DNA of 64,000 nt, taken from Vermamoeba vermiformis (taxonomy: Eukaryota). The DNA lies in the NCBI GenBank assembly GCA_045837725.1, contig JBEWZL010000232.1, forward strand, positions 1-64,000, read 5' to 3'. The position numbers and the translations under genes are program-made. Under the pieces are notes generated by a model. That model was given only the letters and a program-made list of their open reading frames with translations, was not told the DNA's origin and did not search any database. Below, in pieces: positions 1,947 through 56,394 of the stretch. The first letter of the stretch is position 1; the number at the start of each line of letters is the position of its first letter.

Positions 1947-2020
1947 TGCCGGAAGTGAGGCTCGAACTCACGACCTCTGCGTTATGAATCCAATGCTCTA
2001 ACCAACTGAGCTACGCTGGC
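1947..2020 (-). tRNA. tRNA-like gene with CAT anticodon (Met); probably a pseudo-tRNA or atypical tRNA
   Basis: Minus strand GCCAGCG TA GCTC AGTTGGTTA GAGC A TTGGA TTCATAA CGCAG AGGTC GTGAG TTCGAGC CTCAC TTCCGGC A (74 nt). D and T arms are perfect and the A/B boxes intact. There are mismatches in the acceptor stem (A4:C69, C6:U67) and anticodon stem (G30:G40, A31:C39). Confidence 0.8.
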
Positions 2021-15574: not shown

Positions 15575-18500
15575 ATGGTACGTGAATGGATCGCGGTTAA
15601 GAAAATTGATCTGCGTATCGATATCTTCGTATTAAACTCGTGCTAAATTAATGACAGGAGGAAATACTATTAAATACGGATGGATGCATTAAGGGTAAGT
15701 CGTTTCAAAACAATTTTAAACAATTATTAAAATTAACGGCGAATCTGTAAATTAAAAATAAATTTGTAGGCGCTTGCATGGCAAAACTGATGGAACATAT
15801 AACGTTACCTGGAGAAGAACAACCGGGTACGCTTGTTGATTAATTTTTCTTTGCTGTCTAACGGCTAAATGGCTCGATCAACAGACAGATCTCGCTTAAC
15901 CAGGGACATTCTGTTCATGCATAGAAACTTTTCGACACACTCTGAATTATTTGACGCATTAATGAATAGATATCCTTAATAACAGGCTTACCTATTGAAT
16001 TCTTTTTCTTTTGTCACGTATCCAGTTCCCTTGAAATCTTTCCTTAACATCTATCACATTCTTAAAGTCTGCACAGGCAAATACAAGTAATTTGACTGCT
16101 ACACAACAAAAGTAAGCTCAGCAAAAAAATAAATTCCAGGACGAAATTTTATTTTCGCGACTAGCCGCTCTACCGAGCAATAGGACTAGTAATAATATGT
16201 ATTATTTAGAGTTCTCGATACCTTGCAACAATGGATCACGCAGTACCCTGACGACTGGGCGCAAGACTCCAAGCTACGAAACAAAGCAAGAGCTTTCTTA
16301 GACAACAATCCAGCTTTTAGCGCACACTTCGAGACACTATCACAACAAGTAACGCAAACGAAGCGCCAATTTGTTAAGTTATACAACGCTTGGGAGATCG
16401 AAAGAACTCGTACGTAATTTTCTAATTTTTCTCAATCCTTCGTACGTGCGTAAATTATTTTATAATATTTTTATTATTATTTTAGCGGTATTTGACGCCA
16501 ATAAAACGGATCTGCTCTCGTGGGATCCGACAGATCTTGCCAAGGAAATGTTTCTATTCGACGCCTCGCTCTTTATCGAAGTCCATCGCACTGATTTCTT
16601 AGGACTACTTAATAAATCAGAAGATGTCGAGTATTTCACGAGATTTGAGTCCATGGGCAAACGGGTACGACAAAATTCTAAGTTGAAAATTCAAAAACTG
16701 ACCGTACTACAATTAGCGCGTAGAATGGGTCGCCAGTGAGTTGTACAAACAAGATGCAGACAAAGCCGCGAGAAAACTGAAAGCTATCGTGATGCTCGTC
16801 GAGGTACAACCGAATCTGTGTTTTATCTTATTCAAAATTAACCCACTTGCTTAGGCCTGCCTAGAGTATAATAACCTGTTTGCTGCTAGCTATATTTTGC
16901 TAGGATTGCAAGGCGAATCAATGAACAAATTGAGCGCATGCTGGGAACAGGGTCCGACTAAGATCTTGACCTGCGCGAAGAACTTGAACGACAAAGTCAA
17001 GCAATTGCAAACCAACGATAATAAGACCACGACTTATATCCCTCATTTAGGTAACGTCTATTTTACCAACAAGATTTTGTAATTCACAAAACAGCGGATA
17101 TCCGCTTTACTTCCAGAAGCTAATTCGAACTATAGAGGTGCTTCGCGAGCAAATGCAACAAAGCTCAAAAGACATTGACAGCATGCCACCAAACGTAATC
17201 AACATTCAGTGGGTCAGGAGGTTTTCAGGTACGCGAGACTCGGATCCTTCAAGATCTGTGCCCTTTACTGACGTTTCTACTCGCAGATATATTGATGCCT
17301 ATTTACACCGCTGCACAAAGACTGCTCAAATCCACACCTCCTTTCCCTTACAATCTCGCTGCGAGATATTTCTTAACCAATCTTAGAGTTATCGAGAATC
17401 GAATACCAGACGAAGGTAGAGCCACAACTATTGTCTTCTCGCGTAATTTACTCATTTGATATGTTTGTATTAGGTGCGGGCGCTGCAGCTGCCAATCAAC
17501 TGACGGAAAATGCCGAGGACACAAAGCGAAGGAGGCCGTGGGCTTTACGAAGAAAAATATACAATGGTATGCTTGTCTACTCAACTTATTATACAATCTG
17601 TTAATATTTGTGTTAAGGTCGCTTAGGCCGATTATTCGGACGAGGCAGCAGCAACAATGTAATCAACCAAGAAGTTTCTTCGAGACTAGCACTGAGTGAC
17701 GAAGGAGATTTCGATCCGACTGATTTGCGCAGCTCAGCTAGCTTTATGTCGCTCGAGAAGCAGCTTGAAGATATTGAAGGCATTATTTCTACGAAATCTC
17801 AAAAGTCTGATGACGCAAATCTAAGGTTGGTCAAGTTCAAAGAGCTGTTGAAAACTGAGAGCAATTACGTATATTGCTTGGCTTATTATGTCAATAACAA
17901 TCTGAACGAGCTAAAAGTCAACAAGATCTGCTCGCAGAAAAAGATTGAGGTAAGTATCAGTATGTACTTTTACGAGAGCAATACTAATATCTATTTGAAG
18001 ATATTAAGCGGTAATATAGAACATATATTGCACTTCCATCGGTCGTTCTTGAACGCATTGAAGACTGCGTACTTGAATTGGAACGACAAAACAACCGAAG
18101 TCGGCGCTATTTTCCTTAACTACGTAAGCCTATTTGTTCGTATTAAATTTATCAACACTGACCTATAAATATGATAGCATCGATACTTTCACATCTACAT
18201 TGACTTCGTAATGAATTTCGACTTGGCAAGCGAGGTAATCGAAAAATTGAAAGTCAAAAATACATTATTCGCCGAGCTGGACGAGGTAAATATAGTCCGT
18301 TAATATTATATATGGTACTGATGATTATATAGCGGCTGAAAAACGAAGACGAATCTCAAAATTTAGACTTTGCGTCAATTTTAATTCGGCCAGTCCAGCG
18401 CATCCCTCGCTACATATTGTTGCTCGAAGAGATGCTAAAGGGCACAAATAAGACTCATGCAGACTATAATAAGCTCAAGGATGCTTTGAGTAAGTCATTT

Positions 18501-21371
18501 AAGACCTTTTGGTTGTCGATCCAGATCCTAATTTTGCTCGTAGGAAAAATGAAGTGTACAGCCGATCGAACAAATACCGCCAAGAAACTAAAGCAACAAA
18601 AACAGCGTGCCATTCAACTCGACAAAATCATTTCTGGAGTTCCTGCTTCGGTATGTGTTTAACCCATTTTCTTCGATCTCTTAGTAGTGACAAAATATTG
18701 ATACAAATTTAAATTTCTACGTCTTTAAATGTCACTTGAATGAAACTTACTAATATGATGCTACCCAGATGAGTTTGTCTTCGCCTCAAAGAAATCTCGT
18801 CGCAGAACACAAGCTCTTACTCGTCAAAGAGAAAGATATCTTGCCGGTCACGCTATTGATATTTTCGGACTGTTTGTTGATTGCTAAAGACATTTCGAGC
18901 TCGAGAATGGAATTCTTGGCCTTGTTCGATGTGTTGCACTCTAAATTCAAAAAGAGCACCGCGGAAGATGGTAATTAGTTACTAGGAATATCGCAGTTTA
19001 AACCCAAATTAACGACTATTATGCAGTTAAAAAGAATTATCAGGTCAGCGTTCCAGATCGAGATTTCTTTTTGGAGATCCACCACAAAAAACGAGTAAGC
19101 TCTCATTGTCCTACGCTCATATCGATTCTAATCGCCTATAATTAGGTTTATTTATTTGCAGTCGAAAGTAGAATCAAGCAAAAAGACATTGCGTTTGAAT
19201 TCAATTACGTTACGAAGGTACTTTTTTATCAATTTTATTTAAGTGCATGGTCTTATTGTCATTTTTAGCAACACCACAGCCGCTTCTGGCGTACACTAGA
19301 CTTAGAACCAACCACTCCCAAGCCTCGTGTTGGTCACAGTACGGCAATTATTGGTGACAAAGTGTACCTCTTCGGTGGCTTTGACACGCACAAAACTTAC
19401 TTCAACGGCTTGCACATGCTCGACTTAGTGAGCAGTGTGTGGGAAGAAATCAAGCCGCAAGAAGGATTTACTCCGCCCAACCTCGCGTATCACTCGTGCT
19501 CCGTGGTCAGCGGAAAGTTGTACATATTTGGCGGCACCACAGCTGGCGAGAAATATTTCAATCATTTCTTCGAAGTCACAGTATCGGGTACGTATTTAAT
19601 AATAGAAGAGCATTATAAAGGAGATAAATGCCTAACGAGCGGCTTCAGACCTCGACTTGACAGCACATTGGACTCCGATTACACTGACTGGTGAACTTCC
19701 TGGACCTCGTGCCTATCACTCAGCGACAGTAGTCGACGACAAGATTTACATATTTGGTGGCATGACTTCTAATGGACCGTACAGCACGTACTTTGATGAC
19801 ATGTATCTCGTAGATACGGGTATGTTGAAGAGCTACTCATCCTCGCTCAACTGACTTGATAATGCAGTCAATTGCACGTGTGAAATGGTAGAAATCGTTA
19901 AAACAACAATAACAACGGAGGAACGAACACCTCGCGGCAGTTCAGAAACCACGCGCTCAACGTCGAGTGACGACACTGTCCGCTCCAGAAACAGCTTGGA
20001 CTCTGCGCGTCCGTCAAGCAGTGAATCAAGAGATGAGTCGCTGCCTTCTCGCAGTAGTTTGGATGGCTCTAGATCGTCCCTGGTGAATCAACAGTCAAGC
20101 GAAAAATTGACCTTGGGTAACCCGAGGAAACGATCTTCAACGATCACGTTGCCTGAAATTTCAGAAGTTAAGAAGAAAGATCGTAAAAAGCTTGAAAAAG
20201 AAGCAAAGAAGAACGACCGAAAGAAAGCAGCCATTTCAGCAGTGCCTCTTGTGCACGTGACTACAGCGGCCAATAACGTCATATTGCCGCTCAGTCCTAG
20301 AAAAGACGATCAGCCCTCCAAGCGCCAAAAAGCACTGTCGTTGAACAGGAAACCAAATTATCCCTCTGCTCGATCCTTGCACGCGAGTGTAGCCATGGGC
20401 CGCGAAATCTACATTTTCGGAGGTCAAAACCAGGACAAGAACACACTGAAGGATATGTTCGTGTTTGATACAGGTACGAACGCTCTAGATGCTTTTCATG
20501 AAAGAGTTCTAACTGAACTGCTTTTCAGAGACCAAGTTGTTCCGCCGGATCAGACGTGCTACGGGCTTCGTTCCGATGGCTCGTTATGGAGCCACAGCGC
20601 ACAGCTTGACCAACGAGACCTTTTTATTGTTTGGAGGTGCCAATGCAGAACATTCTTTCAGCGAGTACTTCGTGTTCAACAAAGGTAAGCTGAGGTTATT
20701 GTTGCGGATCTCGCGCTCACACAGATCTATTTTTTCAGTGAAAAATCAATGGCAGAAAGGCGTTGTAACAAATTGCCACATTCCCCCTCGCCACTGCCAT
20801 ACTTCTCACGTTGTGGTATGTCATTATTAGTCTTCTTATTAGCTCTAACATGATCAAAGGACTCGGCGTTGTGGATCTTTGCTGGATGTGCAACTCGTGA
20901 GGGTCAAACAGAAGCAACAGACGATGTATTAATTGTCAACGATATATGTACGCCCTTTCAAGTAATTCTATAATCTCTAATAATTCGGTTTAGTCGAGCA
21001 TCTCGAAGATCCAGAAATTTACCTCAAAACACGCAACGAGACAAAAGTTTGTCGATTAATGTACGCACAAACTTGCTTTACTATTACTCTTGCAAATAAT
21101 AATGCTCTATTTCAGATCCGAGCATTACAGCGGAATCAAAAAATATCGCTACAAACTGCTCAAACCGAGCGAGCCTCACAGCGACGACAGCTACGTGTTC
21201 AAGACAATGAACAAAGAGAACCAAGAGCTGTTGCTGACAATCGACGATCAACAGACTGAAATCGAGTTGCTGAAGTTGAAGAACGTAGAACTAGAGAAGA
21301 AAAACATCGATTTGATCTCTCAGCTGGAGCAACTCAAGCAGAAACTGGTTAAATATGAACAACAGCAATAG
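15575..21371 (+). CDS. Dual GEF: RasGEF_N + RasGEF(CDC25) + RhoGEF(DH) + PH + Kelch repeats + coiled coil
   Basis: IKGACMAKLMEHIT, VLDTLQQWITQYPDDW, PTDLAKEMFLFD, CLEYNNL, YIPHL (RasGEF); ELLKTESNYV and LIRPVQRIPRYILLLEEM (DH); repeated YLFGG/YIFGG (Kelch). Confidence 0.85.
15970..16057 (+). other. U12-type (minor spliceosome) AT-AC intron
   Basis: 5' end ATATCCTT, branch site TTCCTTAAC at 16040-16048, 3' end CAC at 16055-16057. Removal gives in-frame DALMN-R-FLKSAQ joining RasGEF_N exons. Confidence 0.92.
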
Positions 21372-24355: not shown

Positions 24356-24491
24356 TGTTGAGTTGTGGTTTTGCACAAAAAACGAACAAGAAGAAAAATG
24401 GCCGCAAATTCAGAACGCGATTACAATTATTCGTCGGTTTTATTTTACAAGTTGTTGCCCTTGCGAGCCATAGGAGCAAATATTACATGTT

Positions 24492-27400
24492 TTAGAATAT
24501 CGTGTTCGCAGTCATGATCAGTGCTCGCACACGCGGGAATCTAGCCTTAATCTCCAAGACGAGCTTCGTAGTTACTTTGCTGCCGTTCTTCACGTACAAC
24601 TCTTCCAATTCGTTGCAGCTTTCGAGCAAATTCAACAGACCTTCGTCGCTCACATCACAGTCAGCCACGAACAGCTGTGACAGTTTCTTGCAGTACTTGC
24701 TCAAGAAGGTCAATGAGCGGTCAGTAACTTCGTCACAGCCTTGAATAGACAATAGTCGTAGTGTCTGCTTCGATTCTGATTGAGCCAAGTAGTTCACTCC
24801 GAGATCTGAGATCTTGCATCCGTCCAAGTGCAGTCGGACCAAGTTCTTCAGCTTAGCAATATGTTGCAGGCCTCCATCAGTAACCTTCGTGCACTACATA
24901 ACAGCGTTAATAATTTGTGACAGAGAGAACCGTGTCAAACAACTTACTTCTTTGATCTGGAGTTCTTCGAGCATAGGGCAAGCCTTGACAATAGCAGCAA
25001 GACTTTCATTCGTCAAATTGCCAGAGTTGAAGTGCAGCACTTTGATGCGACAGAAGTCGTCGGGAGAACTGTTCTTATACAACAGCTCTTTGGCCTTGCT
25101 CACTACAATGTTGAAGAAGTCCTTCGCATTGGCTCCGATCAGCAGACAACCGTCCAAATACAACTACATAAGGACGTTAGAATACGATGCCATACGTATA
25201 TATTAAAAAAAGCGTACCTTCTCTAACGCGGGACAGTTGGCCAGAATGTGCTGCAAGCCTCCCTCGAGGCTCAAACATTGCGACAGATCCAAACTTTGCA
25301 AGACTGCAGAGTGCTTAGCGATCTCGTTGAGCGATACACTAGTCAATTTGAACAAGCCAGAGAGCGATAGAACTACAAAAGAATGTTTTAGAAGGCAAGT
25401 CCTAATGATAAATTAAACAGATGGGTCTAACCTTTGAGTCTGGAGCAGTTGCGCGTGATGACAACGATGGACTGGTCAGTAATTTGTGTGCAACCACTTA
25501 GGTCCAATTCCAGCAAAGACAAAGGTAGCTTCTTTGCTAGTGCCTTGAGGCCCATATCAGTGATCATCTCGCAATTACGTAACTTGAGAATTCGCATGCT
25601 GGAACAGCGATCCGCAATCATTTTGACAGTCGTATTCTACGCGATGAGGTTAGTCTTAACTACAAGAAACTAATATTATACTACGTACTGTGACACCAGG
25701 AATAAAGGACAGATCCAAGTGCGTCAACATGTGACAGGACTTGATGACCATCTGCAGGCACTCGTCACTGACATTTCGACACTTGCGCAAGTAAAGCTCT
25801 TGCAAGGCTGTTTGCTGCGGTAAGCTCAACAAGCTCGTCGATGTCAACTGGTAACACTCCGTAAGATCCAAAACACTGCGGAAGAATTAGAGGAGTCTTT
25901 AAAACTTGCGAAATTTCACGTGTTTCATATTCGGTGTCTTACCGTAATTTTAGGCACGAACGAAGCACGGCGACTAAGGCCTCGTCCATTGTTCTATTTA
26001 CATATGAAAGGTAGAGCTTTTCGATTTGCGAAAACACAGCCAAACATCCTACTGCGTCGGATGTGATCAGCGCGCACATCGAAAGATCCAGGTACGTCAG
26101 TCCCTCAGGGAAGTAATAGAACTCCGATGTTAGAGGCATTTCTCGGTGTTGATGATCGATGTATTTCACCAACGAGGAGTTCAATTGCTTTTCTTTGGAG
26201 AAGGACTAGGGAATTGAAACGCCAAGATTAGCATTACCATTTAAGGAAACATGACATCGCGAGACTTACCAAACGCTGCTGGCTCGTGACTCGGCTTTGT
26301 TGCCTTTTTAGCTTCTTGAGTTCAGCTGGCAACGGCGATGAGTCGCCATTCAGATCCCACTGCTGATTGTTTGGATTCGTAGCGACTCGCGCGATAGAGT
26401 CATCTATTTCTTCTACGGGCTCCAATTTCATCGGACTCCTATTTATAGAAGGTTAAATTCCTATTACTAAAAAAGGCGAAAAAATGTGGATTCGAAAGCC
26501 AAAATTTGTTCTTACTCGGTTTTTCGGGAGTTAATTCCCATTCTCGGCTTTTTTCCTTTTCTTAACACCGGACCCATAGTAATTGATCGGCAACCCACGC
26601 AGGATAAGTACTCCAGCTTATGGCAGTGTTTGGCAATGTGCGTCATAGTTTTGTCGGTAATTCTGCACTCATCCAGGACTAAGTAGGTCAAGTTCGGGCA
26701 AAACGCCAACAACTCGATCAACTTGTCCTCGTTGAACACTTCAGGCGAGAGGCCCTTGAAGTTGAGCCTTGTCACTTGCTCGAGCTTGAGCTTGAAATCA
26801 TTCTGCATGTCTGGGAAGTACGAGCTGAACTCGAGCAGCGCCAGTAGCTCGTGACAAACTTTGACCATTCGACTACAAGACAGATGTTAGTATAACAGTG
26901 TTATTAAGGGACCTTGGTTCGTACCTTCGTTTCGCATTAGGCTTTGTCAGCGTGTTGATGTCGCTGATGTAGCTATCAAAAATTCTTCTATAAACATTGG
27001 ACAGGTTGTCTTTGTACACGGCAAAAGTGGTGCCTAATCGACGAGCAGCCTTGGCACTGTAAGTCTGAGCATTCTCCACGAAGTACTGTTTCTTCATCGA
27101 GTCGACGTAGAAGCGGAACATCAATCCTCCGTAATGCATGTTGACTTCAGGGTGCTGTTTGTTCAGCTTGCGAAGGGCACTGTAGATCGTCGATGCCATC
27201 TCAAACGACTCTCGTTTGGCTTTGAAGTCGCTGGCTTGATTGTACATCTCCTCGATGGCACGAGCCTTGTTCAACAAGGTGTCGAACAAATTGACGTCTA
27301 GTTGCAAGGCCTGCACAAACTTTGCCTTCGACAGCTTCAAAATTTCGTTGGCAAAGTGGTGAGGCTTCAGCTTGACCTTGTCAAACAAGAACTCGGCATA

Positions 27401-30400
27401 GTCGACTAACATTTCCACTAAGTTTGTTCGGGCCTCCGGGAAATTGCTGTTGATCTTGAGTGCACGCGCAAACTTTTCTTCAGAGCTAATGAAAAGTTCT
27501 TCTGCCTTGGTCGCATCCGTTACCATTGACTCGCTGGACACGGGCTTGATCTTAGGCTTGTACCGGATCTCTGCACTTCTGTTGCTCAGCATGCCAGCCG
27601 TCGAGAAGTGGTCACGATCTAACATGCTGCCCTTGGACGAGGTGACTTCCAAAGAGGCCGCGAGGGGTTGCAAGGTCACGGGTACCTTTGGCATGCCAGG
27701 GATTTCGAGGGACTTAAAGCGTGGCCGCTGATCTCCAGGCGACAAACTCCTCGTTGAAATCTCACTTCGTAGCACAGGGAATCGAGCAGAAGCACTTCGG
27801 CTGTTGGGACTGATCAGGAAATTGACGTGACTGTGGTTTTCCGCTGGTGAGCTCGTCATGGGTGTGGCGGGACTACTCGACCTGCTCTTCGGTGCTTTAA
27901 TCATCTTGTTATTGTTGTTGCTAATTTGCGCGTCGAGTGAGATGTTCAAGCGTGATTTCATCGGTGACATGTACGACTCGACTGAAGTCAGCTCAGACCT
28001 GTAAACGTCTGAGTCGGCATCGTTGGACAGATCCGCTGACACATTGACAGGGACCAATCCCTCGATGATCGTGGCACCATAGGACTTGCCGTCTTGTGTG
28101 ACTGAATGCTGACTGCTGTCATCAGAGAGATAATCTCGTTCGTCTTCTTCCACAATTTCCTCTTCTGACAGTTCAGAGTCAAAGTCAGATGACCTCGTCA
28201 GCGATAATGAACTCGATGAAATGTCTGCTATTCGTTGTCGCTGATACGCAAGTCCGGGCCTCCAAGCGCGCACTGCCATCACGTGTAACATTCTGCCCCA
28301 GTGAAATAATGTCATGGCACTGTTTGGTGCTCGTGCCAAGGCTTGACTGAACTTCGTGTCGGCCAATGCGAATAACCTAACCATTGTTAATCACGTGCTT
28401 ATTGAACGAATGATGACATACCGTGAAGATTCCCGACCAAGATTTCTACTTGCTTCGTAGTATAATACAACGGCACTGGAGTGCTCGATAAGATTCATAT
28501 ATTTTACAGTTGCTTCGATAGCAAGGACGTCCGGGTCGACGAATCTGAAGGAGTTGGGCTCGCGTCGGAATTCCTCCATCGCTGATTGAGAGAATTGAAT
28601 GCCTGTCAGCGCAGACAAATTTTCGAATATTTGTACAACGTCCACGCATTTTCTATTAGTTCTAATTAGCACGAGGATAATATTAACTATTTGACACGTA
28701 CCTCAAATCAAACAACTCGTTTTCTTCCTCTGGCGATAGACACTCGACAAATTTCTCTTTCAAGTACCGCTTGACAGTGACTGTCCACCACTCGCCCTCG
28801 TAGTCAAGTACTTTGTTTAAGAACGCTAAAATCACCTTTCGATAGGGCTCTTCTGACGGAACTTTGATCTTTCGAAGTTTGTCCCTATAACAGATCATGA
28901 GCACAACTATTATAATATTAACGACTAGGTGGATCAATGTACCTTAACCTGGCGTTGAGCTTATTCTTCAAGACACGGGTGATGCAAATCATTAAGATCA
29001 TTTGACGCACTTCAGGATTGGACACTGAAGCACGAACAAAACCCAAGTGTCGAATGTTAATGCCTTCACGGTGACACTCTTCGATCAAGCGAATGTTCTC
29101 CATTTCGTTGTACGACAGTTTACTCAGTCGTTCAGCGAACTTTGGAATGACTTCGAAATAAAGCCGCAGCGTTGCCTCTTTGACCTACACGTGACTGTTA
29201 AAGTGTGATCGAAAAGGGGGTCGCGTGAATGGTACGTACTTCGTTATTGTGTATTTTACAGTTTTCAGGGTCGTGAGTACCCCAGCCAGTAAGTGCATCG
29301 CTGGACAACGGCTTTGGATTCGATTTGACGAGTTCAGGCCGTAGCAGCTCGTACAAATGACGTGGCTTGCGATCTCGCCTCATTTTGAGTTGAGGCGGGA
29401 ACACTCTGTGAGAAATAATTAGTGCCTGAATGCCTAATAAGGCAAGTGTGACACGTACCGAGCAAAATCGACCAAGTAAAATCGCTTGTCTTTGCCGAAA
29501 TGTCCTTCAATATCACCAGCTGCGTGCAATATCGCCTTCGAGTTCATGCCGACCAAGTGCGCTTTCAAGTTCAATATTCCAGCTGCTTGTTCCATCAGCC
29601 CGTTGAACTTGCTGTTGGTCGCGCGCACGTGCTGGCCACCGTCGGACGAGCCATAAATGAGCGTTGTCTTATCGATCGGAAGTAACGACAGGGCCACGAG
29701 TCGAAAACCACGATAGTTGATAAGAGCCATTAAAGGCAAGGACCTGTTCGTGGATTGGCCGTTAGTCATATCAGCGTATCGAGCGGAATTATTCGTTGCA
29801 TAAAGCGGAGGTGCAATGCCACCGGGAGTAAAGATTTGACCAAATATGGTAATGTTCAATGTTTGGATACATTTAAAGTATGAGTCATGAATATTTTGAA
29901 ACATCCATATAAAACATTATAGCGATGCATTGATGGTTAAATTAAGCAATTTCGAAATTGCTAAGGCGCGATAATATGTTTCGAAACTTTGAAATGTAAA
30001 ATTGCACGTGAACGCGTAAGACCAACTAAAAATAGGTAATATTTAAAATTAGCTGCAATTTGTTATTTTTAGCGCCTCGAATTCGTAATTATGAAATTGG
30101 AGTCTCCCAATATTATGACTTTAGTGATAATTTCCGATTCGAATACTACTTACAGACCGGGGATCTGACAATTATAATAACTCATCAAACCCAGAAGCTC
30201 GTGTCCTGCAGCCTAAAATAACATCAATTATTAGAAATGCAACAAATAAGCGTAGTATAAGCGCTAATAAGGCTTTAAGTGACGAAACGATTTTAATTTA
30301 GCCGGTAGCGCATCCAGCGTAATCTCTTTAACGAAATTTCGAAATCAGCATCTGATTCTTTGATTCATATATTATATGCTGATTTAATTACGTAGAACGG

Positions 30401-31325
30401 CGTTAGTTCTCGAGTTAACTAACGCATGCATATCGAGCGGAATAATTTTCAAAATACAACGGATCGGAAGAAATGGTGTTGCCTTAAGCTTACCTTCATA
30501 GCAGCTTCATCGTTATTGCCATAAATGCCTTCGGTATCCAAAGCGAACTAAATAAAATTTGAATTTGTGAGTAAAAAGTCGCTTGGTAAATCCGGTCCAA
30601 ACGGGAAGAGGGAGTTTTTTTAAAATTTGTTTGATGGGCTTACCTTGAATAAAATATTCAATACTATGTATTTATCGCCTCCTGCACGTCCTCCGACTGT
30701 GACAGGTTTGATAGTTTTCTGAGCAATGGGCAATCCGAGCTCTCCAATTATGATTTTGCCCTGTAAATTAATGAATTAATATTTATTATATCGACGTTAA
30801 TATAAAGTTAGCCTATTAAAGAAAAATTAGAATTTCAATCTCGGTCTCAACTTTTTAAAATATTATTAAAAAATCGCAATATGAGCTTACATAAACTTGT
30901 GCAGCATAGCAAAAATCTCTCGCTAATTCTGCTAGTTTTTTATATCGTTCTGTCAGGTGCTTTTCAGAGGTAGTTTGCTGCTCCAATAAAACCTGAAACT
31001 CCGCATTCCAATCCTTTCCTGCTTGAATAGGTATTGGCATTGGCTTGCTAACACCATTCTCTAAATTATATTCTTCGTCTTCATTAGAATCGTGATCGTC
31101 AATTTCTTCATCACTATCTTCATAAGCCGATTCGTAAGTTTTGTACAGATGGCTCAATTTTGGGTCTGAATGAAGGAATCGTTCCTTTTTGCTTGTATCT
31201 CCATCTGTTATATGCTCTTTATATCTATAACTGTAGCTTTCTGCTGACGGAAAATGATGATTTGTCTCGCTTTCTGAGCTCGATGCGAGCGAGATGAAAC
31301 GTGATAAATCTCTCCTATCGTTCAT
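24492..31325 (-). CDS. Clu-domain protein with TPR-like region and C-terminal AMN1/FBXL-type LRRs
   Basis: DWNAEFQ, AGGDKY, AAGHEL, PLMALINYRGFRL, DIEGH.GKD.RFYLVDFAR, LRPELV..PLSSDA and HREGINIRHLG (Clu-like); many LDLSGCTQITD-type repeats. Confidence 0.85.
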
Positions 31326-31945
31326 TTGCTACAATGGTCCCATTTACATATTATTATCATTACTATTTACAAACATATAACGTTGCGCTGTGTTAATCGT
31401 TTGGTTTTAGGGCACAAAACAAAAAAAACGAATTGCGCCTTGAAAAGGGTAAAAAAATTGAGCGACAAATTTAGACGCGTGCGACGGAAAAAAGTTTTAT
31501 AATTTTCGCCTTATTTGGCTATATTACAGCTGTTCGTGTCATTCGGATCGAGTCAACCTCAAGCTCAACCATAGCATTTTTGAACCGGACGTTGATTAAA
31601 TTTTAAATCCGTCACTTTTGGCGTAATGAAGAACACGCTGTTAATGGTAGGACATCTTGGTTAACTACCAAAATTGCCTGTCCACGAGGCTAACCTACAA
31701 AAATTCAATTTGACTGAAATGAAATCCAGATTTGTTTACCTTGGTTCGTGGCTTCTTGAATTGTGCTGCATCCCTAAATATTCCAAAATAAACCATTCCC
31801 ACAAACATGGATTTTGGGAGTCTTTCTTGAGTTTGCGAAAGTTTTTGGAGCTTCATCCCAGTGCCATTTTTGTCAATCTGAGTGGTACCGAAGACAACGA
31901 GAGGACGCGAACACAAATCCCTCTCAACGTAAAGTGGCCACTATA

Positions 31946-47713: not shown

Positions 47714-49118
47714 CTAGTTCGCGGATGCGTCAAATTCTTCTTCCACGATAAGCAAATGCTTTTTGGCACCGCCTAACAACTCTTCTATATTTTGGGTCTT
47801 ATCAGTTGATAGTGTTACTTTAGTTTTCGGATAGCTCGTGAAAAGTTGCCACGATCTCGTTTCGAGAGATAAATTTCCTAAACAGGAAGGCATTAAATTA
47901 TTGCAATTTACGCGTAAATTCTTTATCATTAAAGCCCAATAAAATTAATTTTGCAAGACCGTGGCATTTACCTTCAATAAAATTATAAAGTTCCTCCGAA
48001 GTAGTTGTCTTAAGAAAACGGCGGATCTGCTTAGCGCCATCTGGGAAACGAAGTGCGATCTAATAGTACGGTTAAATAGTGCTCTAAAAATGCAACGAAG
48101 GCGATTAAAGTACTGAACGAACCTCCACTGCGTTTTGTGTACCGGCATCTGGTTCCGGCGAGATCGACTCTTTAAGCTGATCTCGATAGCTTCTCAAGCT
48201 CTATAGTGCACAGTGAGTTAAATAACGTTCTATGCGCGGTATTCAACTATTTAAAGCGGATCTCCCGCTCGCGTACCTCTTCGACAATTTTTTGTTCTTC
48301 TTCAGCCATCTTTCTTTCATTTTCCTCTTTCGCTCTTTTCTCCTCCTACAAGCGCATTATTTTGTATACTTTCATTATATAGTCCATTGGGTCAAGTCAA
48401 AATTACCTTTTCTCGATCTTGTCTCAAACTTTCTTCAAAAGCAGCGTTCTGTTCCGCAATAAGGGCACTCGTTTCATCGTAGTTATTGTTATTATTGTTA
48501 TTTTGCTGAGCGCGTTGCCGTCTTCGTTGCTCCTGATCGCAAAAAAATTAATGCCCGCCAAAATATTTAAGTTTGGCAAACCAGAACAACAGAATGTAAA
48601 ACAAGATTAGTACTTATATTGTATACTATACCTCTTCTTCTCGGAACCGAAGCGATTCTTCAATTGCCCTTGATTCCTCGAGCCACTCGTAAGCGAATCT
48701 TTGTTGATCTTGTAGTTGCCTTTGCCTTCGTCGTAATTCAGTCTCCTACAAAAAATGTTAATTTTAGCATTTTTGAAAATACAAGGTAGGCATTGTAATT
48801 TATCAAGATACATTAGGAATTCATTTCAGACAGATTCAGATTTCAAAAATATTTGTATAAACGAAATTAGCATTGATTATGTTCTAATAATTACCCTAGC
48901 AGTTTCTGTGGCCTGTAATTGAAGTCTTTCGCGGCTTCTGAGGACGCTAGCTTGATCTAAATTTTTCAAATTAATTAGTAATTTTGCAAAAATCAATTAA
49001 TTTATTGAACTAATGTACCATATGTAGGAGTAGCCACATTTGCGTTCCTGTTGTCTTTTTGAAGCAAAGTACGCCAAATCCACTTTGCCACGTAAGCGAT
49101 AGGGAAACAGACAAACAT
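47714..49118 (-). CDS. UBX-domain protein (p97/Cdc48 adaptor, FAF-like), about 8 exons; start approximate
   Basis: EQNAAFEESLRQDREK coiled coil, PEPDAG, IALRFPDGAKQIRRF...LYNFI, LFTSYPK. Confidence 0.85.
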
Positions 49119-49947: not shown

Positions 49948-52900
49948 ATGAGTTCGAGCAGCGGTGAAGACACGCTGTCTCCTCTGGAAAGCAACAATAC
50001 GAACGTGAAATCTCCGACCTTAAGCAAACGTTCTGCATCGCCTGGCAAGACTCGATGGCGTCACTCGTCGGGCAGTAACGGCACTACTTCGAAGAATTCC
50101 GGATCCAAATCCAAGCGCAGTTCGCTTTCTTTTGGCAAGCAAGACGCTTTGGAAGCTCTTCGAGAGGTAAGTACATCAAAATAACTGGTAAATTACGCGT
50201 AAATTATGGAATTCGGCCTGTCAGATCGAAATGACACAAGCATTGCAAGTATTTCACGTGTAATAATTTACTCTATTTCGGGCATTTATTTTTCATGAAA
50301 CTTAAAATGTGTAAAGTTTCCGAGCTGATAGTACTTCTTTGTAGCTGGAAGATGACGATGCACCGCCTCTGGACTCCACCCGATCGGTAAGTCATTCCAC
50401 GGAAGTTAAGTTTTTCCACCGGATCTGATCACATCCGCAGAGCTCCGAAGCAGTATGGCGCGAGAAGAATGGAAAGGTGGTCATAGTACGGGCTCAGATA
50501 CCCTTCTTGGTCCGAAGTTTACTAGCCGATAACTCAGGTATATAACAGCAGCGGAACAAAAAGTTTACCTTTACTGAATCTGACACGGACTTTCAATTCC
50601 AGATCAGAATTACCTCGAATACTTCTTATCCACCTACGACTACTTCCTGGACACTATTTATCTGTTGCAAATGCTTATTGACATGTAAGTACATACTAAA
50701 GTATCTTTACCTCATTCGGAGATATATTTTCATCTGATAAATTTTAACCTCCGCTACTTAAGGTACCACTCTCCGCCGGATATCGGTACTGCCGCAGCAG
50801 ATGACTTGGACGCATTAGGTTCTAAGGTCATCATCCAATTAAGGTAAGTCGTCTTGAAAGCTTTGTACCGACGGATGCGATCCGGTACTAACGCCATGTA
50901 TTTCAGAATCATCAATGTTTTAAAGAAGATTGGCGACCTTAAATACAACACTTACAAAGATGACCAGCGCTGGTTGGCTATCTTCTCTAAGTTCATCGGT
51001 ACTCTTGAAGCTGGTTCCGAGATCGAGCGAAGTTGCGCTTTACGACTCAAGATCTTTGCTGTAAGTCCTTTCATACATTCATTGGTGTCATATATTAACG
51101 GTGTATATAGTCAAACAGGTCTAATATCGGTACATTTGTTACGCCATTTCCGAAGTTCAATCCTGCGAAAGGTGCAGAATTCGACTTTTTGATGGCGGAT
51201 CCGAAAGCCATTGCCAAGCAACTTTGCTTGCTTGACTTGAAATTGATTAAGGCCATACCAGTAGAAGAGTTGCATCATAAACGATTCGAAGAAAAGTCGT
51301 CTAACGCATCCACTGTCAAGACAAACATGGCTAAAGCGGTGGACAACTTCAATCAAGTAAGACTTACTATGACTGTTTTAATATAGCGAGACCATAATAA
51401 TTGTTATTTAGACGAGTTTTTGGTTGGCTTCATATTTCTTTGTCACCGACAACCCGAAGGATCGATTGCAGATCTTGTGCAAGTACATCCAGATCATGGA
51501 CTACTGTTTGCACTACAATAACTACAATGGCGTCATGAAAATCTTCTCGGCTCTCAATATGACGCCTGTTTCTAGTCTCGCTAACTACTGGAGCGAATTG
51601 CCTCCCGAGTTTGCCGCCATCTGGGAACGAATCCAACAGGTTATGAATCACAGTCATAACTACAAGAGCTATCGTGAGATGCTTGAAAAAGCTAAACCTC
51701 CGTGCCTACCCTACTTAGGTAATTCTAAATATAGATTTATGTGGATTAAAAAAATTACTAACTCGATCGATGCATAAGGATTGATCCTCCGTGATTTGAT
51801 TTACATCGAAGAACTGGATGATAAGGTCGGCGATATGGTTAACTGGGAGAAGATGCATTTACTAGGCAAGACCTTCAGCACCTTCACTAAGTTCCAGAGG
51901 CAGATCTTCGCCTTCGAAGAAGATCCGGTGATCTTGAACTTCTTCGGCGACATTTCTGGCAGCAAAGGCGTCCTCTTCGACGAAGCTGTATTATATGAGA
52001 TTAGCAGGGAAGCCAAGGCTGACGTAGTCAAGTGTAAGTTGATATCATTATAACGCGAGTTGGAATCCGAATCTGATCCGTTCAATTTTTAGCTTCACCT
52101 CCTACACTTCAAATGACGAATGGTCCGTCTAGCGGAGGCAGAAGTAAACTAACTTCTTCAAGCGACTCTGCAGCAAGCAGTCCTAAAGGCCGCGACAAGC
52201 GAGTCGGAAGTTTTAGCCGATCCACGCCGCAGTACAACTTCACCGACACCGGTAGCGAGATCTCAGACAGTGAAATCTCTACGAGTGAAACCAACGACTA
52301 CTCTATGGACTGGGAGGACGAGACATCGTTTAGTTCATTGATGGAGGCCAATGCTTCGTCCACAAGCATGTCGACTTCGAACACATCCAGATCCGAAAAG
52401 AGCCGAACGGATTATACGTACCACTTGCCTTTTTGGGTAAAGAAGCGAGAAGTCACGACTCTTGACGGTCAAAAGGTCTTATTAGGAGACATATTCGAGA
52501 AATCTACGGTTGTATTCGTTTTGTTGAGACAATTCGGGTGGTAAGTTTGAACTCAGATCACGCTTAGGTATGGTATTAATTTCTGCTTAGATTGTTGTGC
52601 AGGAAGTCAGCCAATGAGCTGGCTCAAGTCAAACCATTCTTCGACTTACTGTAAGTACCGGACAAACTGCGGATGTGGCAATACTTAAATTTTATTAGTG
52701 GGGTGAAGTTAGTCGCGATTGGTAGCGGTACTCCTGCAATGGCTCGAGATTTCAAAGAAGAACGAGGATTCTCGGGCGAGATCTACGTCGATCAGTCCAA
52801 GCAGATCTACGACGACTTCAACTGCACTCGCGGTTGGAAGAACGCTTTGTTCAACTCTAAGACCTTAAAGACCATCAAAAACGCTTTCAAAGAAGGCTAT

Positions 52901-53526
52901 GCTCAAGGTTCTACGCAAGGAGATATGTTGTAAGTTAGCGCGTACTGGATTACGAAATTTCCTTTTTCGCTGCAACGCGATTGGTCGGTTATTTTCAGCT
53001 CTTACTGAATTGTTTCTTAGGCAAAATGGAGGAACATTCATTCTCAAGGACTTCCGTGTTATCTACGAGCATATCGAAAAGTTCGCTGGTGACCATGCGG
53101 ATGTGATCCAGTTGCTTCAAATCGTTGGTGCGGATCAAGGCCTAATCGAACGAGTTTACTTAGAAACACCAAAACTCCGCAAGAAAAAGGTACGAAACTC
53201 GTAATACTCCTTAGAAATAGATTACTAATGTTTATTTAATCCAGGCTAAGCTTGAAAGGAAAATTGAGAAATACCAGCGCAAGCTCAACTCGATTACTGA
53301 AGACTTGGAAGCTCAACCTACGAGCTCATTAAGCAAGTCTTTGGACCATCCTCCTCGTGCGTCTTCTGACAGCAAGTTCGCGGAATTGATCGCGAAAAGG
53401 AAACGCAAGAGCGAACAAAAGAAAAAAGAGCGCGAAGAGACGATAAAGTCCAAGCTTCAGACTTACACCAAGCAACGAGAAGAGCTCGAACCTGGTCTTA
53501 AAGCGGGTAGCCTCGTAGAGGAATAA
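49948..53526 (+). CDS. RasGEF (REM + CDC25) fused to a SelU/PRXL2-like (AhpC-TSA_2) domain; predicted selenoprotein with UxxC motif
   Basis: RasGEF: IAKQLCLLD, NNYNGVMKIFSALN, NYKSYRE, PCLPYLGLILRDL, VNWEK. In-frame junction at 52033|52093. Redox domain VFVLLRQFG-U-LLCRK...GVKLVAIGSG...IYVD...QGDMLQNGGTF...GDH. The UGA is TG(52539-52540)|A(52591). Confidence 0.88.
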
Positions 53527-53635
53527 GAACCGAACATCAAAGTTTTGCGTTGAATAATAGCAAGGGACCTAAAGACAGCTCAAATCACCCGTGAGCGAGT
53601 TTTTTTGTCCTGATCGGATCTAGTGCGCGAACGGA

Positions 53636-53721
53636 TCTATCAAAATTGGCGTGAAGTCCTATGCGACAACTCCGAATATCAAAAGGAGCAGCATATGGTA
53701 CTGATATTATGTTTTGGTAGA
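53636..53721 (+). promoter_or_regulatory. Eukaryotic SECIS element (type II, GUGA_AA_GA) in the 3' UTR
   Basis: Helix I TCTATCAAAAT/GTTTTGGTAGA (11 bp incl. G-U). Core GTGAA(53651)/TGAT(53702). Helix II GTCCTATGC/GCATATGGTAC with two bulges. Apical AA at 53668-53669 and mini-helix CTCC/GGAG. About 110 nt after the stop codon. Confidence 0.82.
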
Positions 53722-53980
53722 ACTGTCGTGGACTGATCTGGTCCGCTACAAATGACGGCAAATTTTTGTTAGTTTTATTTCGAAACGAATTTTGTAAATA
53801 GCCTATGTACATAAAAAAAGCTCATTTCAATGTCTGTCAGAGATTATTATATTTCAGCTGTCCAACATTAAATCGTCGAAAAGCCTCGGAAATGGCCATT
53901 CGCAGATCTAGCAACAATAACTGTTTTTATGTACAAATTTACAAAGTTTAAGATTGATACGAGTGATGATATTACCGTCA

Positions 53981-56394
53981 TTAAATATCTACCACTTCGT
54001 ACTCTTCTTCGTCATCGCTTTCTTTGTCTTGATCCGCGTTAGATTCAGGTTTGTTGGCGGCAATGAAGAGCTTGTTCAAGAAATGTGCCATGATCTGCAT
54101 ATTTCTCTCGAGTCTGTCGTCCATAATCTTCTTTTCTCGAGCAGTTGTAGCATAGCCAGCACCTTCTCGGATCACGACTTCAGTCTCCATATTGCCGTCG
54201 ACGAGGTGCGTGATGAACTGCACAGGCGTCAAATCGACATTAGGAAAGTTGTTCTTAATGACATCGACACCAGTGTTGAACGCGTGTTTGATCTCGCCAG
54301 TGGTGTCTTTGACTTTAATCGACAACTCTTTGGTGCAATTCCATACGACATTTTTCATCAAGGACTCATCATCTAAGCATCATATATTAGTATACTACGC
54401 TTTATACGAACATAAGGATGCTATTTTCTTACTGAAATGGACTTTGATGGCCGTGCTGTTATCGAGTTGCATGGTAAAGATAGGCACGAAGACGTTCAGT
54501 GTGACATTGCTGCATTCAATCATCTCGAGTGTGCTCGTCAAGACAGCGGCATTGATATTCAATACAACGTTGTCACATCGCTCTGTAAAGTGATAACGTT
54601 AGTAAAAGTGCACGGGTAGATCCGGATCCAAAAATGACTTACCTAGGACCAACTTTGTGCACTTCTTATTGAGGTCAAATACGGAGTTCTTGCATTCTTT
54701 AAGATAGACAAGGTCTTTAAAGCTAAATCCTTCAATTTTCATCTTTTGATCGTTCTCCTGATCTACGAAAAAAATTCCTCGACGCGAGATCTTGCGAACA
54801 GGTGGGGCAGGTAAGTCACCAATAGAGCTCGGTTGATTATCGTTTTCTAGCTTAGGGTTGGCCCTAGCTTGCTTAATTTCATCGATTTTTTGTAGCTGGA
54901 ACTCGTTGATCTGTTCTGCAGTGCGTAAACTGTGCTCGATGCCGGTAGGTGTTTTGGCGAGCGGATCGAGCTTCAATTCTTGCAGTAACAGCGTCATGAA
55001 GTCATCAGTAGTGCATCTGACAACAGTAGAAGCAAGAGAGTCATCTAAAAGATTGGTTAATTAATCGGATCTCGATCGGGTAAATTCTTCGCTGAAATTG
55101 TGATTTGATTGCAATTTGAGTGCAATTAATGAAAATAGTAAAAAATATATATGCCACTTACATGGAGTCTTTTGTAGATTGACAATAATCATTTTGCCGT
55201 CTTTTTCAGTGCAGTACAGAGGCAGTTGGCAAGCCGGTTTTACGCGCATGGATGTGCCCATGACGAGCGTCAAATCAGCCGCATTTGAAGCAGTAATAGC
55301 GTCACTGAGTTCCTTTTCGGGTAAGTTCTCACCAAAGTTAATAATAGTGTTCACTGAAAAAGAAAAAGTTGGTTAGATCCTGTCCGGTACAACGAGAACT
55401 TTCAGACCGTAAAATTTCAGTCAAAAGACTTTAGCGTCATTTTTAGTTATCTATACTCTTAATATTACTTTAAAGCGATAACTTACTGAGATCACCGTCG
55501 CATCCAGGTTGCTCGCACTTATTTCCAGTCGCGTGACCTCGTCCCTTGCAGACGTTGTGGTCGCGCAGGAATTCAGTATTGCACTTTCTGCATCGCTCCA
55601 AATAAGCATTGCCGTGGAGCTCAGACAACTATAGCATGTTTTAGTCATATATGATAATTAGTCTATACGAGGATGAAGTACCTTTTCCCTAGGGAACCCG
55701 GATCTCATGTGCAGCCCATCAGTGTTAGTACTAACGAGATACTTAACGATACCAAGCTTCTCTAATTGAACGAGGGTCATATGGCAGACCTAAATAATTG
55801 GCAGAGTTAGCGTTTGCCTAAATCAGCTACAAAAACAAATCTACTTACAGTCGGATGCAGATCTTCTAACCTCTTATTAAAATTGGGCTTTGATCCTTTA
55901 GCAGCTAATGTCCATACGCCTTGTGGTCCTCGGAAATCAGGCAAGCTGGTCGAAGTGGAAACACCAGCGCCAGTGTACACCACAATATTCTTAGCTGCGC
56001 GCATCAATTCTGCAACTTTCTTCACCTATATATTATTAAATAATAAAATTAATAAAAATTCGGCAAGCAAGAATTTGCGATCTGAACTTTATGCTCAGAT
56101 GACCGAAGACTCACCTTTTGATGAAGAGTTTCAGGCTCATCATAATATTCTGTAATATCCTCGCCAGGGTTATGAGCGTAACGGCCTCCAGGTAATGCAG
56201 GAGGTTTCACAGCCACATCTCGTCGTTCAACCTGAAGTCAATTTCAGTTAGAAAATTGTAGAATAATTAAAATTAAATTTTTTTAGTTGAATAATATTAT
56301 TAGTAGTTGATTGATAGTAAAGGCTTACCGTATTGACTGACTTTAAATATTTTTTATCAAATCCGACAAGTTCTCCAAGCAAGCCACTCTCCAT
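53981..56394 (-). CDS. Class IV (SIRT6/7-like) sirtuin with N-terminal WH2/thymosin-like motif and C-terminal CAP_C-like domain
   Basis: [36 protein letters not shown], CxxC..CxxxxC Zn site, [26 protein letters not shown]; then L.ECKNS/ERCDNV beta-helix-like repeats and QFIT..V.G...TE.V.REG.GY.TT.RE. Confidence 0.85.

Follow-up and report, generated by a model that had tools for sequence, protein, structure and literature searches.

A stretch of 64,000 nucleotides of Vermamoeba vermiformis DNA (positions 1 to 64,000 of contig JBEWZL010000232.1; hereafter the window) carries a gene that is very probably a real fusion of a Ras-family exchange factor (RasGEF) with a selenocysteine (Sec)-containing, PRXL2/SelU-type thioredoxin-fold (Trx-fold) domain, and its product is a predicted selenoprotein. 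The original prediction of the fusion, of an intron-split UGA at the catalytic site and of a SECIS element survived tests against RNA data, homologues, selection and chance controls. It had also stated that no RasGEF-selenoprotein fusion was known to have been described, and our literature searches likewise turned up none.

In the spliced gene model, the reading frame runs from an ATG at 49948 to a TAA at 53524-53526 through 13 introns, all of GT-AG type, and its sole internal stop, a TGA, is codon 644, with 246 sense codons behind it (Table 1). The frame had been described as open and family-like for more than 200 codons after the TGA; the openness held, but only about 136 of these codons are family-like, the last ~110 encoding a Lys/Glu-rich helical tail. 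RNA evidence was taken from runs X1, X2, X3 and X5, of which X3 and X5 are more distant from the window; X1 and X2 were treated as RNA because their contigs are spliced, no record labelling the runs as RNA. RNA joints matched 9 of the 13 modelled introns, a tenth (50167-50344) was seen as a loose end, and the remaining three were covered by alignment to the transcriptome ORF P0212, which is 84% identical over residues 1-643 (the gene call P0001 is 89% identical over residues 645-880). Both predicted junctions were present as RNA joints: 52033|52093 in an X1 contig, and 52540|52591 in one X1 contig, 2 X3 reads and 3 X5 reads, i.e. in three of the four runs, with zero depth at this joint in X2. 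The chain of joints is continuous across the two, which bears out the proposed in-frame continuation from the RasGEF through a Ser-rich linker into the Trx-fold domain.

Table 1. Features of the predicted RasGEF-selenoprotein gene in the window.
Feature	Position	Strand	Basis or remark
Whole gene	49948..53526	+	14 exons, 890 codons, one in-frame UGA
Exons 1-7	49948-50166, 50345-50386, 50441-50537, 50603-50684, 50763-50843, 50907-51060, 51111-51356	+	
Exons 8-14	51412-51718, 51779-52033, 52093-52540, 52591-52650, 52699-52929, 53021-53189, 53245-53526	+	
N-terminus, Ser/Lys-rich, probably disordered, ~residues 1-87	49948..50386	+	pLDDT <50 for P0212 residues 1-60
REM domain (RasGEF_N), limits approximate	50480..50990	+	PF00618 on P0212 residues 101-200 (E 4e-11) and on Cys form P0023
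CDC25 RasGEF catalytic domain	51207..52020	+	PF00617, PDB, Foldseek
Ser/acidic linker, ~110 aa, disordered in model	52093..52424	+	Joint 52033|52093; 75% identical in P0212; pLDDT <50 for P0212 502-609
PRXL2/SelU-type Trx-fold domain (AhpC-TSA_2), motif R-Q-F-G-U-L-L-C-R, exons 10-13	52425..53138	+	Pfam, PDB, Foldseek
Predicted Sec codon TG|A (52539, 52540, 52591), split by 50-nt intron 52541-52590	52539..52591	+	RNA joint, homologue breaks
Lys/Glu-rich helical C-terminal tail, ~110 aa, probably coiled coil	53139..53526	+	P0023 model, identities
Type II SECIS	53636..53721	+	Fold, z, pattern scan, anatomy

That the GEF and the redox domain belong to two adjacent genes, or that the fusion is an assembly artefact, is extremely unlikely and has already been largely refuted. 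No one long read spans the unit, no one read or contig in runs X1, X2, X3 and X5 reached from the GEF to the SECIS, and databases keep the halves apart (P0212 and P0001). However, in P0212 a single transcript ORF covers the GEF and runs 38 residues into the redox domain, which contradicts separate transcripts, the homologues P0023 and P0031 are unbroken fusions, the joint chain crosses both junctions, and the break in the databases falls inside the Trx fold, precisely at the UGA.

The exchange factor part is a complete REM plus CDC25 domain, as had been proposed: PF00618 and PF00617 both scored above cut-off, and the predicted fold is SOS-like, partly by way of the close homologue P0212 (PF00617: E 1.6e-28 on one exon of the window gene, E 1e-46 on P0212). 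The CDC25 sequence matched RasGRF1, Epac2 and SOS1 in the PDB (E ~1e-28 to 1e-23), and the predicted REM-CDC25 structure of P0212 resembled SOS1 in Foldseek, with pLDDT mostly >90. In substrate scoring, RasGRF1, Epac2, RalGPS1 and SOS all lay within 17 bits of each other, and the protein may act on Rap or a different Ras-family GTPase instead of Ras. The gene thus resembles SOS1, RasGRF1, Epac2/RAPGEF4 and C3G in its complete REM and CDC25 domains and SOS1-like predicted fold. Known factors of this type receive their regulatory input through cNMP, EF/C1, DH-PH or proline-rich modules, whereas the window gene carries a Sec/Cys redox domain in their place and differs further in an atypical helical hairpin. 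In the main text of a survey of Ras-switch architectures, the terms thioredoxin, AhpC, redox and selen- are all absent (PMC3141262).

The hairpin, RDLIYIEELD, has Leu at a position where most GEFs have Gly (among 76 generic GEFs: Gly 48/76, non-Gly 28/76, Leu 0/76), and the form E-E-L-[DE] recurs in P0212, P0213, P0023 and P0031. In addition, the GEF part diverges faster than the redox domain: between the window gene and the Cys forms, CDC25 is 34-36% identical and the redox domain 49-56%. These features would suit a catalytically weak or dead CDC25 domain serving as a Ras-binding scaffold, the protein then being a selenoperoxidase anchored at Ras-family GTPases. We regard this as improbable, in view of the complete domains and confidently predicted fold, and of the hairpin itself, in which the aromatic, D-L and E-E residues are kept and the aromatic, L/I and E-E positions align with RasGRF1; the Gly is missing in 28 of the generic GEFs too, and the Arg before Asp is common to 16/76 of them. 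Furthermore, CDC25 is 90% identical in a close relative.

At the other end of the linker, splicing of the intron yields RQFG-TGA-LLCRK, as confirmed by the model and the RNA joint, and UGA644 aligns with the catalytic Cys44 of human PRXL2B. The transcript ORFs P0212 and P0213 terminate exactly at R-Q-F-G, i.e. at the UGA codon, P0214 extends one codon into the same intron position, and the gene calls P0001, P0007, P0002 and P0011 start directly after the site; in the unbroken fusions of two Cys-form clusters, P0023/P0003 and P0031, the position is Cys. Compared with close relatives, the domain downstream of the UGA is 93% identical versus 87-90% for REM/CDC25, and 16 of the 17 differences listed downstream are synonymous; judged from these alignments, the sequence behind the UGA is under strong purifying selection.

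Readings in which UGA644 is something other than Sec, namely a genuine stop that ends the GEF at 643 aa, Cys or Trp through a variant code or leaky readthrough, or a codon bypassed through an acceptor at 52602, are very unlikely. Trinity labels P0212 as a 'complete' ORF, and the 52602 acceptor exists in frame, where it would encode Trp and lose L-L-C-R. Only the 52590 acceptor, and no joint to 52602, was found among the RNA joints listed, contradicting exclusive use of the latter; since read-level joints were listed only at 3 or more reads, a minor isoform using 52602 may exist. Trp stands at the site in P0015 and P0108, probably because TGA was translated as Trp during gene calling. Of the 11 ORF ends that we checked in the window, every one is TAA or TAG (0/11 TGA), so the window gives no example of TGA as an ordinary stop; its tRNA content is tRNA-Met only. 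Against these readings stand the strong selection behind the UGA, a SECIS at the expected location and the codon counts of the window gene (1 TGA vs 10 TGG and 7 TGY), besides six other transcripts, described below, with one TGA each at the same site. General reassignment of UGA is likewise disfavoured, with one TGA per gene, always at this site, alongside Trp and Cys codons. Termination at the UGA had been expected to leave a GEF-only product; it would instead leave the GEF, the linker and 38 Trx-fold residues.

A SECIS recodes UGA to Sec, and we take the element found here to recode UGA644. It lies 125 nt after the stop codon and folds as described in the original prediction, with its GUGAA, AA and UGAU landmarks present: helix I pairs 53636-53646 with 53711-53721, the core consists of GUGAA (53651-53655) and UGAU (53702-53705), and an apical AA (53668-53669) precedes a mini-stem (53670-53673/53685-53688). 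The hairpin was more stable than its shuffles (z -3.2 and -2.9; 0/200 as stable) and ranked best of 8 pattern matches in the whole window, where the core was defined as UGAN/KGAW (PMC3753652). Shuffling the window 30 times (3.84 Mb) gave 209 pattern matches, none of which equalled the element on both energies, whereas 19/209 passed a looser energy cut. An Rfam scan of 53400-54000 gave no SECIS match and one chance snoRNA match, so the assignment rests on anatomy, position and our own pattern scan (not SECISearch3). In the RNA runs, an unstranded X2 contig that is unconnected to the coding sequence covers 53586-53746 with 5 letters different, X3 and X5 have zero depth over the 3' UTR, and none of the runs has any coverage in the following bin, 53758-53911.

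The redox domain belongs to the PF13911 superfamily: exon 12 alone scored 47 bits (E 4e-12) against a gathering cut-off of 27, P0001 scored 73.5 bits, and (U/C)xxC starts the active-site helix. The proposed placement in the SelU/PRXL2A/AAED1 family stood as regards the PRXL2/SelU superfamily; however, the nearest solved relative is PRXL2B and not PRXL2A, PRXL2B being the only close match in the PDB. Within the superfamily the domain may be of the SelU1, SelU2 or SelU3 type, the trees including no animal PRXL2A/B/C sequences. The best PDB sequence match was 9us9 (PRXL2B, E 5.7e-19, via the homologue P0015), and the predicted model of P0023 matched 9usa (PRXL2B) in Foldseek with a TM of 0.86 by target length. 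The domain shares with the SELENOU/PRXL2 family (human PRXL2A, PRXL2B or prostamide/PGF synthase, and PRXL2C) the Trx fold and R-x-F-G-(U/C)-x-x-C-R with U at the first Cys, and it retains equivalents of the PRXL2B catalytic residues Arg40, Phe42, Cys44 and Cys47, whereas Arg41 is replaced by Gln or His in the window domain and its relatives. Sec and Cys forms coexist in SelU1-3 (PMC3473315, PMC13134290), as they do among the relatives of the window gene. The matched human structure is a stand-alone enzyme of 198 aa, while the window domain forms the C-terminal portion of a GEF of 890 aa. The tail that follows is 84% identical in P0001 and 29-31% in the Cys forms, and long helices are predicted at 701-732 and 766-808 of P0023.

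The U-x-x-C redox box is also common to AhpC-like selenoproteins and the SelL-related redox protein NF040769; its occurrence in protists, sponges, fungi and bacteria has been described (PMC3753652), and AhpC and SelU have been noted as similar (10.1101/314781). Five homologues scored 82-108 bits against NF040769, below its cut-off of 120. Bacterial loci have the same motif with TGA in 115/119 cases, but most of these proteins are short (medians: 57 aa upstream, 143 aa downstream), no GEF is attached to any of them, and they lie on the opposite side of a branch (SH-aLRT 100) from all 34 non-bacterial-type rows of the tree.

Besides the window's own lineage, GEF and redox domain were joined in 10 of 211 collected proteins, all from the two Cys-form clusters. 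The lineage of P0002 and P0015, for which no upstream ORF was found, was therefore not counted as GEF-fused. The redox domain was joined to RapGAP in 9 of the 20 long matches scanned, all Cys forms and probably of amoebozoan origin. A pattern search of metagenomes gave 21 matches, of which 6 were the same domain with an in-frame TGA in DEP-PH or PH fusions and the other 15 were discarded as chance matches. These six transcripts, selected by a pattern requiring TGA at the site, each contain a single TGA in the reading frame used, at that site, along with 4-6 Trp and 6-10 Cys; SECIS-like hairpins occur in the UTRs of 4 of the 6 (4 sites within 790 nt of UTR vs 4 within 15,926 nt of other sequence). 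The occurrence of this domain clade on RapGAP (Cys) and on DEP/PH (UGA) is a new finding of this analysis. A metagenome scan with an earlier alignment (A1) gave 599 pattern matches, 0 of them confirmed, a viral collection searched with P0212 and the TGA pattern yielded nothing, and the clusters retrieved from the ESM Atlas were all either generic RasGEF (0.76-0.77) or bacterial AhpC/SelL-related ones. RasGAP-like N-termini of P0064 and P0061 had no support in Pfam or PDB, and a single clade of only GEF-fused and RapGAP-fused domains was rejected (p-AU 1.7e-5, quick tree). The redox domain behaves like a mobile module of small-GTPase signalling. Sorted by partner, its attachments comprise activators (RasGEF, Sec or Cys), inactivators (RapGAP with PH, DEP-RGS or kinase domains, Cys) and membrane adaptors (DEP-PH, predicted Sec).

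As to function, we lean towards a selenoprotein REM-CDC25 exchange factor with a C-terminal U-x-x-C domain whose oxidation state sets GEF output. Near the membrane, the selenol would react with a lipid hydroperoxide or with H2O2, after which a U644-C647 selenenylsulfide would close; P0031 lacks the second Cys of the motif, so this step would not be universal. The oxidation state would then set GEF output, most simply by way of the active-site helix and the helical tail, through dimerisation or localisation, a fixed contact between redox domain and CDC25 being less simple, and a thioredoxin or glutathione system would reset the oxidised state. The atypical GEF hairpin and the ~110 aa of disordered linker between the domains weigh against this reading. 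Low selenium might add a second layer through a truncated GEF or mRNA decay. In PRXL2B, Cys44 is the peroxide-attacking residue and the CxxC helix forms the dimer interface (PMC12938796); Sec is used by Amoebozoa (PMC2375036). We infer a redox-sensor function in Ras signalling, which the same domain clade on RapGAP and DEP-PH proteins makes more plausible. As a separate proposition, redox control of GEF output is evenly balanced in our judgement.

Alternatively, the selenoprotein's redox domain might work in trans, the GEF bringing it as a tethered reductase or peroxidase to Ras or Rap, where it would reduce an oxidised NKCD cysteine or clear local peroxide with GEF activity itself unswitched. 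Ras, Rap1 and Dictyostelium RasG, the last of which is superoxide-sensitive, have a redox-sensitive Cys118 (PMC6695279), the length and flexibility of the linker would allow the domain to act on a partner, the catalytic residues are kept, and the same domain sits on RapGAPs and on membrane-targeting PH/DEP domains. We consider this arrangement fairly unlikely, as a domain fused time and again to GEF, GAP, kinase and RGS proteins would more typically be an input module, the role that oxidation-dependent control of GEF output assigns to the domain.

Most known selenoproteins are stand-alone oxidoreductases or ER factors; if the Sec reading is true, a signalling switch protein would itself be a selenoprotein. 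Algal SELENOM-pVHL, SELENOM-ShKT and GST-MSRA likewise join a selenoprotein domain to an unrelated domain in a protist, but none of them involves a GTPase regulator, 'Ras' being absent from the main text of that report (PMC7539508). A Sec domain on a Ras-family GEF would give a SelU-type domain a defined partner pathway and offers a direct readout, the exchange rate with and without peroxide for U, C and S variants, for which natural Cys and CxxG versions serve as controls. It also exposes a blind spot of annotation: in databases the protein appears in two pieces, a RasGEF labelled 'complete' and a separate fragment, and a standard-code gene caller would split the DEP-PH candidate selenoproteins likewise. 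For the cell, the fusion would link H2O2 or selenium status in a concrete way to Ras/Rap signalling without oxidation of the GTPase itself. More broadly, and tentatively, amoeboid protists may have made the SelU/PRXL2 selenol domain a general redox-input module for small-GTPase signalling, of which the window gene would be the first selenoprotein GTPase regulator, switched by peroxide via Sec644 and by selenium supply via UGA recoding.

Joining the 14 exons of the gene (ATG 49948 to TAA 53526), which lies in an intron-rich, eukaryotic window of about 42% GC, gave 890 codons with a single internal stop, a TGA at codon 644; intron 52541-52590 splits this codon as TG|A, and 246 sense codons come after it. 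Single exons matched RasGEF (PF00617, E 1.6e-28) and AhpC-TSA_2 (PF13911, E 4e-12). A second in-frame acceptor lies 12 nt further on (52602), which would give Trp and delete L-L-C-R. As RNA evidence, four of five listed sequencing runs were aligned to the window: X1 and X2 consist of assembled contigs, for the most part 95-99% similar to it, and X3 and X5 are raw RNA-seq from a relative, for the most part less than 95% similar. GT..AG joints were seen for nine of the 13 modelled introns, and a loose end for one more. The joint 52033|52093, leading from the GEF into the linker, was present in an X1 contig, and the UGA-forming joint 52540|52591 in one X1 contig, two X3 reads and three X5 reads; no joint to 52602 was listed in the four runs, where a minor form could fall under the listing threshold. 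Both junctions of the original prediction were thus recovered as RNA, and sole use of acceptor 52602 is contradicted. Of the single transcript that it proposed for GEF, redox domain and SECIS, the UGA-forming junction was recovered; no single read or contig in the four runs spans the whole unit. An X2 contig covers the SECIS region (53586-53746, with 5 other letters), and the depth of X3 and X5 over the 3' UTR was zero.

Judged from protein records, which do not include codon letters, the homologues appear to break where Sec decoding predicts. P0212, a 'complete' Trinity ORF from EukProt bearing REM and CDC25, matches residues 1-643 at 84% and ends at L-L-R-Q-F-G, as does P0213; P0214 continues one codon into the intron at the same position, and P0001, P0007, P0002 and P0011 begin at the residue directly after the U position. 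The ends of the fragments P0017, P0018, P0020 and P0009, which come from genomic contigs, suggest that intron positions are shared. Conservation behind the UGA is no lower than in the GEF (identity 93% vs 87-90%), and among 17 downstream differences recorded for the relative, 16 were synonymous, as counted from 40 listed differences of a longer set (130 more). Unbroken Cys fusions formed two clusters, P0003/P0023 (C-I-I-C) and P0031 (C-V-L-G), the only GEF-redox proteins (10 sequences) among 211 collected, and their redox domains grouped with that of the window (support 93/85 in one tree and 90 in another, starred in neither). The ORF breaks fit orthologues with TGA at this site, and the Cys fusions are counterparts with Cys there; the latter, together with the spliced frame and the 52033|52093 joint, also place RasGEF and redox domain in one frame.

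By sequence and by fold, the closest solved relative of the redox domain was human PRXL2B/PGFS, whose Arg40, Phe42, Cys44 and Cys47 correspond to R640, F642, U644 and C647. On this alignment the UGA644 site is the catalytic position, which we take to be the site of peroxide chemistry. In PRXL2B, docking is reported to put Cys44 at peroxide, and the CxxC helix lies at the dimer interface (PMC12938796). Both Sec and Cys forms of SelU1-3 occur (PMC3473315; PMC13134290), and a related U-x-x-C 'AhpC' family has been reported from protists, sponges, fungi and bacteria (PMC3753652; 10.1101/314781). Because of the PRXL2B match, this SelU and 'AhpC' literature and a match to NF040769 that scored under its cut-off, the domain is assigned to PF13911; the SelU label predicted originally is correct at this superfamily level.

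SECIS elements direct the recoding of UGA to Sec. The candidate hairpin at 53636-53721, its core 125 nt past the stop codon, has a helix I of 11 nt, GUGAA and UGAU cores, 12 nt to the unpaired AA and a 4-bp mini-stem, and folds with z = -3.2 and -2.9. A custom SECIS pattern run over both strands of the window matched 8 sites, of which this hairpin was the most stable, and none of 209 pattern matches in 30 block-shuffled windows equalled it on both energies (19/209 passed a looser energy cut). GUGA_AA elements are reported from algae and sponges, and 5/5 Dictyostelium elements are described as type II (PMC2375036). The type II assignment is thus supported by anatomy, folding and shuffling, although an Rfam scan of the hairpin region gave no SECIS match.

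REM and CDC25 are complete, score similarly to RasGRF1, Epac2, RalGPS1 and SOS, and were modelled confidently with an SOS-like fold. The helical hairpin R-D-L-x-x-x-E-E-L-[DE] is common to the window gene, P0212, P0213, P0023 and P0031; of 76 generic GEF matches, 48 have Gly after E-E and none has Leu there, and Arg precedes Asp in 16. Exchange activity is likely from sequence and model, a scaffold with a dead GEF ranking third among the readings, and Rap is a fair substrate candidate because the redox domain is also fused to RapGAP. Oxidation of Sec644 would alter GEF output. Dimerisation or localisation is the probable route, given the disordered linker of 110 aa between the domains and the helical tail behind them. 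In the main rival, the redox domain is a tethered reductase acting on Cys118 of the GTPase, a residue whose redox sensitivity is reported for Ras, Rap1 and Dictyostelium RasG (PMC6695279). Failed recoding could lead to mRNA decay, because three introns of the gene follow the UGA, or to a GEF with a 38-residue stub at its end.

When 1.84 billion representatives were searched with a profile, 8,785 matched, and the best 150 of these were listed. Among 20 long matches scanned, Rap_GAP was found in nine, alongside PH, DEP+RGS, kinase or KHA, PH only in one further, and RasGEF in none. Two RapGAP fusions are named, from Cavostelium apophysatum and Soliformovum irregulare, both amoebozoans. Cys occupies the site in 8/9; P0099 starts downstream of the motif, so its gene could possibly carry UGA there. 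P0060, P0074, P0082, P0100, P0118, P0108 and P0015 either begin immediately behind the U position or have W in its place and, on their protein records, are likely further UGA-bearing members. In P0056, P0061, P0064, P0076, P0083 and P0092 the redox domain lies behind 280-520 residues without confident Pfam match.

The pattern R-[HQ]-F-G-TGA-x-x-C-R-[KR]-S-A matched 21 metagenome DNA records, 15 of which were rejected as chance. The other six are genuine ORFs without introns, four of them DEP-PH-redox and two PH-redox truncated at the 5' end; in five, the PH domain is followed by a C-I-x-C-type motif. SECIS-like hairpins lie 26-49 nt past the stop in 4/6 (4 sites in 790 UTR nt vs 4 in 15,926 other nt), folding less distinctly (z -1.2 to -2.7), and none was found in the 149 nt available in L004 or the 81 nt in L013. 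DEP-PH-(SelU-type U-x-x-C) is a second candidate selenoprotein architecture, absent from the literature searched. A similar TGA pattern in bacterial genomes gave at least 119 loci, and 115 of 119 were the same redox domain, none fused to a GEF. In the bacterial Sec forms L089, L034, L046, L036 and L066 the site is followed by about 470 residues, and L075 and L049 have long frames upstream of it; these are possibly bacterial fusions. In a 51-row quick tree (13/115 bacterial rows, a subset of protein matches, none from animals), all 34 rows extended by GEF, RapGAP, DEP-PH or other parts fell to the same side of a branch supported at SH-aLRT 100; an exclusive GEF+RapGAP clade was rejected by tree test. 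This suggests a single domain lineage that was shuffled into signalling proteins on several occasions, some of them with Sec and others with Cys.

Fusions elsewhere that carry the redox domain, and further features of the window
Feature	Location or records	Strand	Remarks
RapGAP-redox fusions	P0069, P0071, P0072, P0079, P0087, P0097, P0099, P0113, P0165		Pfam scan
TGA-bearing DEP-PH/PH-redox ORFs	L001:147-1556(-), L004:3-1322(+), L013:85-1434(-), L020:49-1407(+), L008:2-1048(+), L014:142-1089(-)		metagenome
UBX-domain gene	47840-48610	-	upstream of RasGEF-redox gene, divergent
RhoGEF domain	~16350-20700	+	by eye, GEF-like and kelch-like exons close by; may be a further multidomain GEF gene
CLU (clustered mitochondria) domain	~24490-31330	-	TPR-like and LRR-like exons by eye
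tRNA-Met(CAT)	1947-2020	-	sole tRNA found in window

The convergent neighbour at 53981-56240 (-) shows Sir2-like and then CAP_C-like exons, and is possibly a sirtuin-CAP_C fusion; its CAP_C pieces are each below cut-off, and its 3' end is expressed in 4/4 runs. All 11 ORF ends checked in the window were TAA or TAG (TGA 0/11), a small set that may include false gene ends; in the host organism, TGA may seldom serve as a stop. Judging by the named relatives, the style of its introns and the neighbour with a CLU domain, the host is probably an amoebozoan.

As the original prediction supposed, no selenoprotein-RasGEF fusion was found in the literature searched, mainly open-access journals with supplements outside, nor any selenoprotein-DEP or RapGAP-thioredoxin fusion in protists or amoebae. 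The main text of a Ras-switch survey contains no redox term, its domain lists S6 and S7 lying outside the search (PMC3141262); related architectures could be in the AhpC alignment S6 of PMC3753652, likewise outside it, and the algal selenoprotein fusions reported are of other kinds (PMC7539508). The RasGEF-redox fusion, an undescribed pairing of two known domains, is real and very probably contains Sec, and it belongs to a wider set of signalling proteins with this redox domain.
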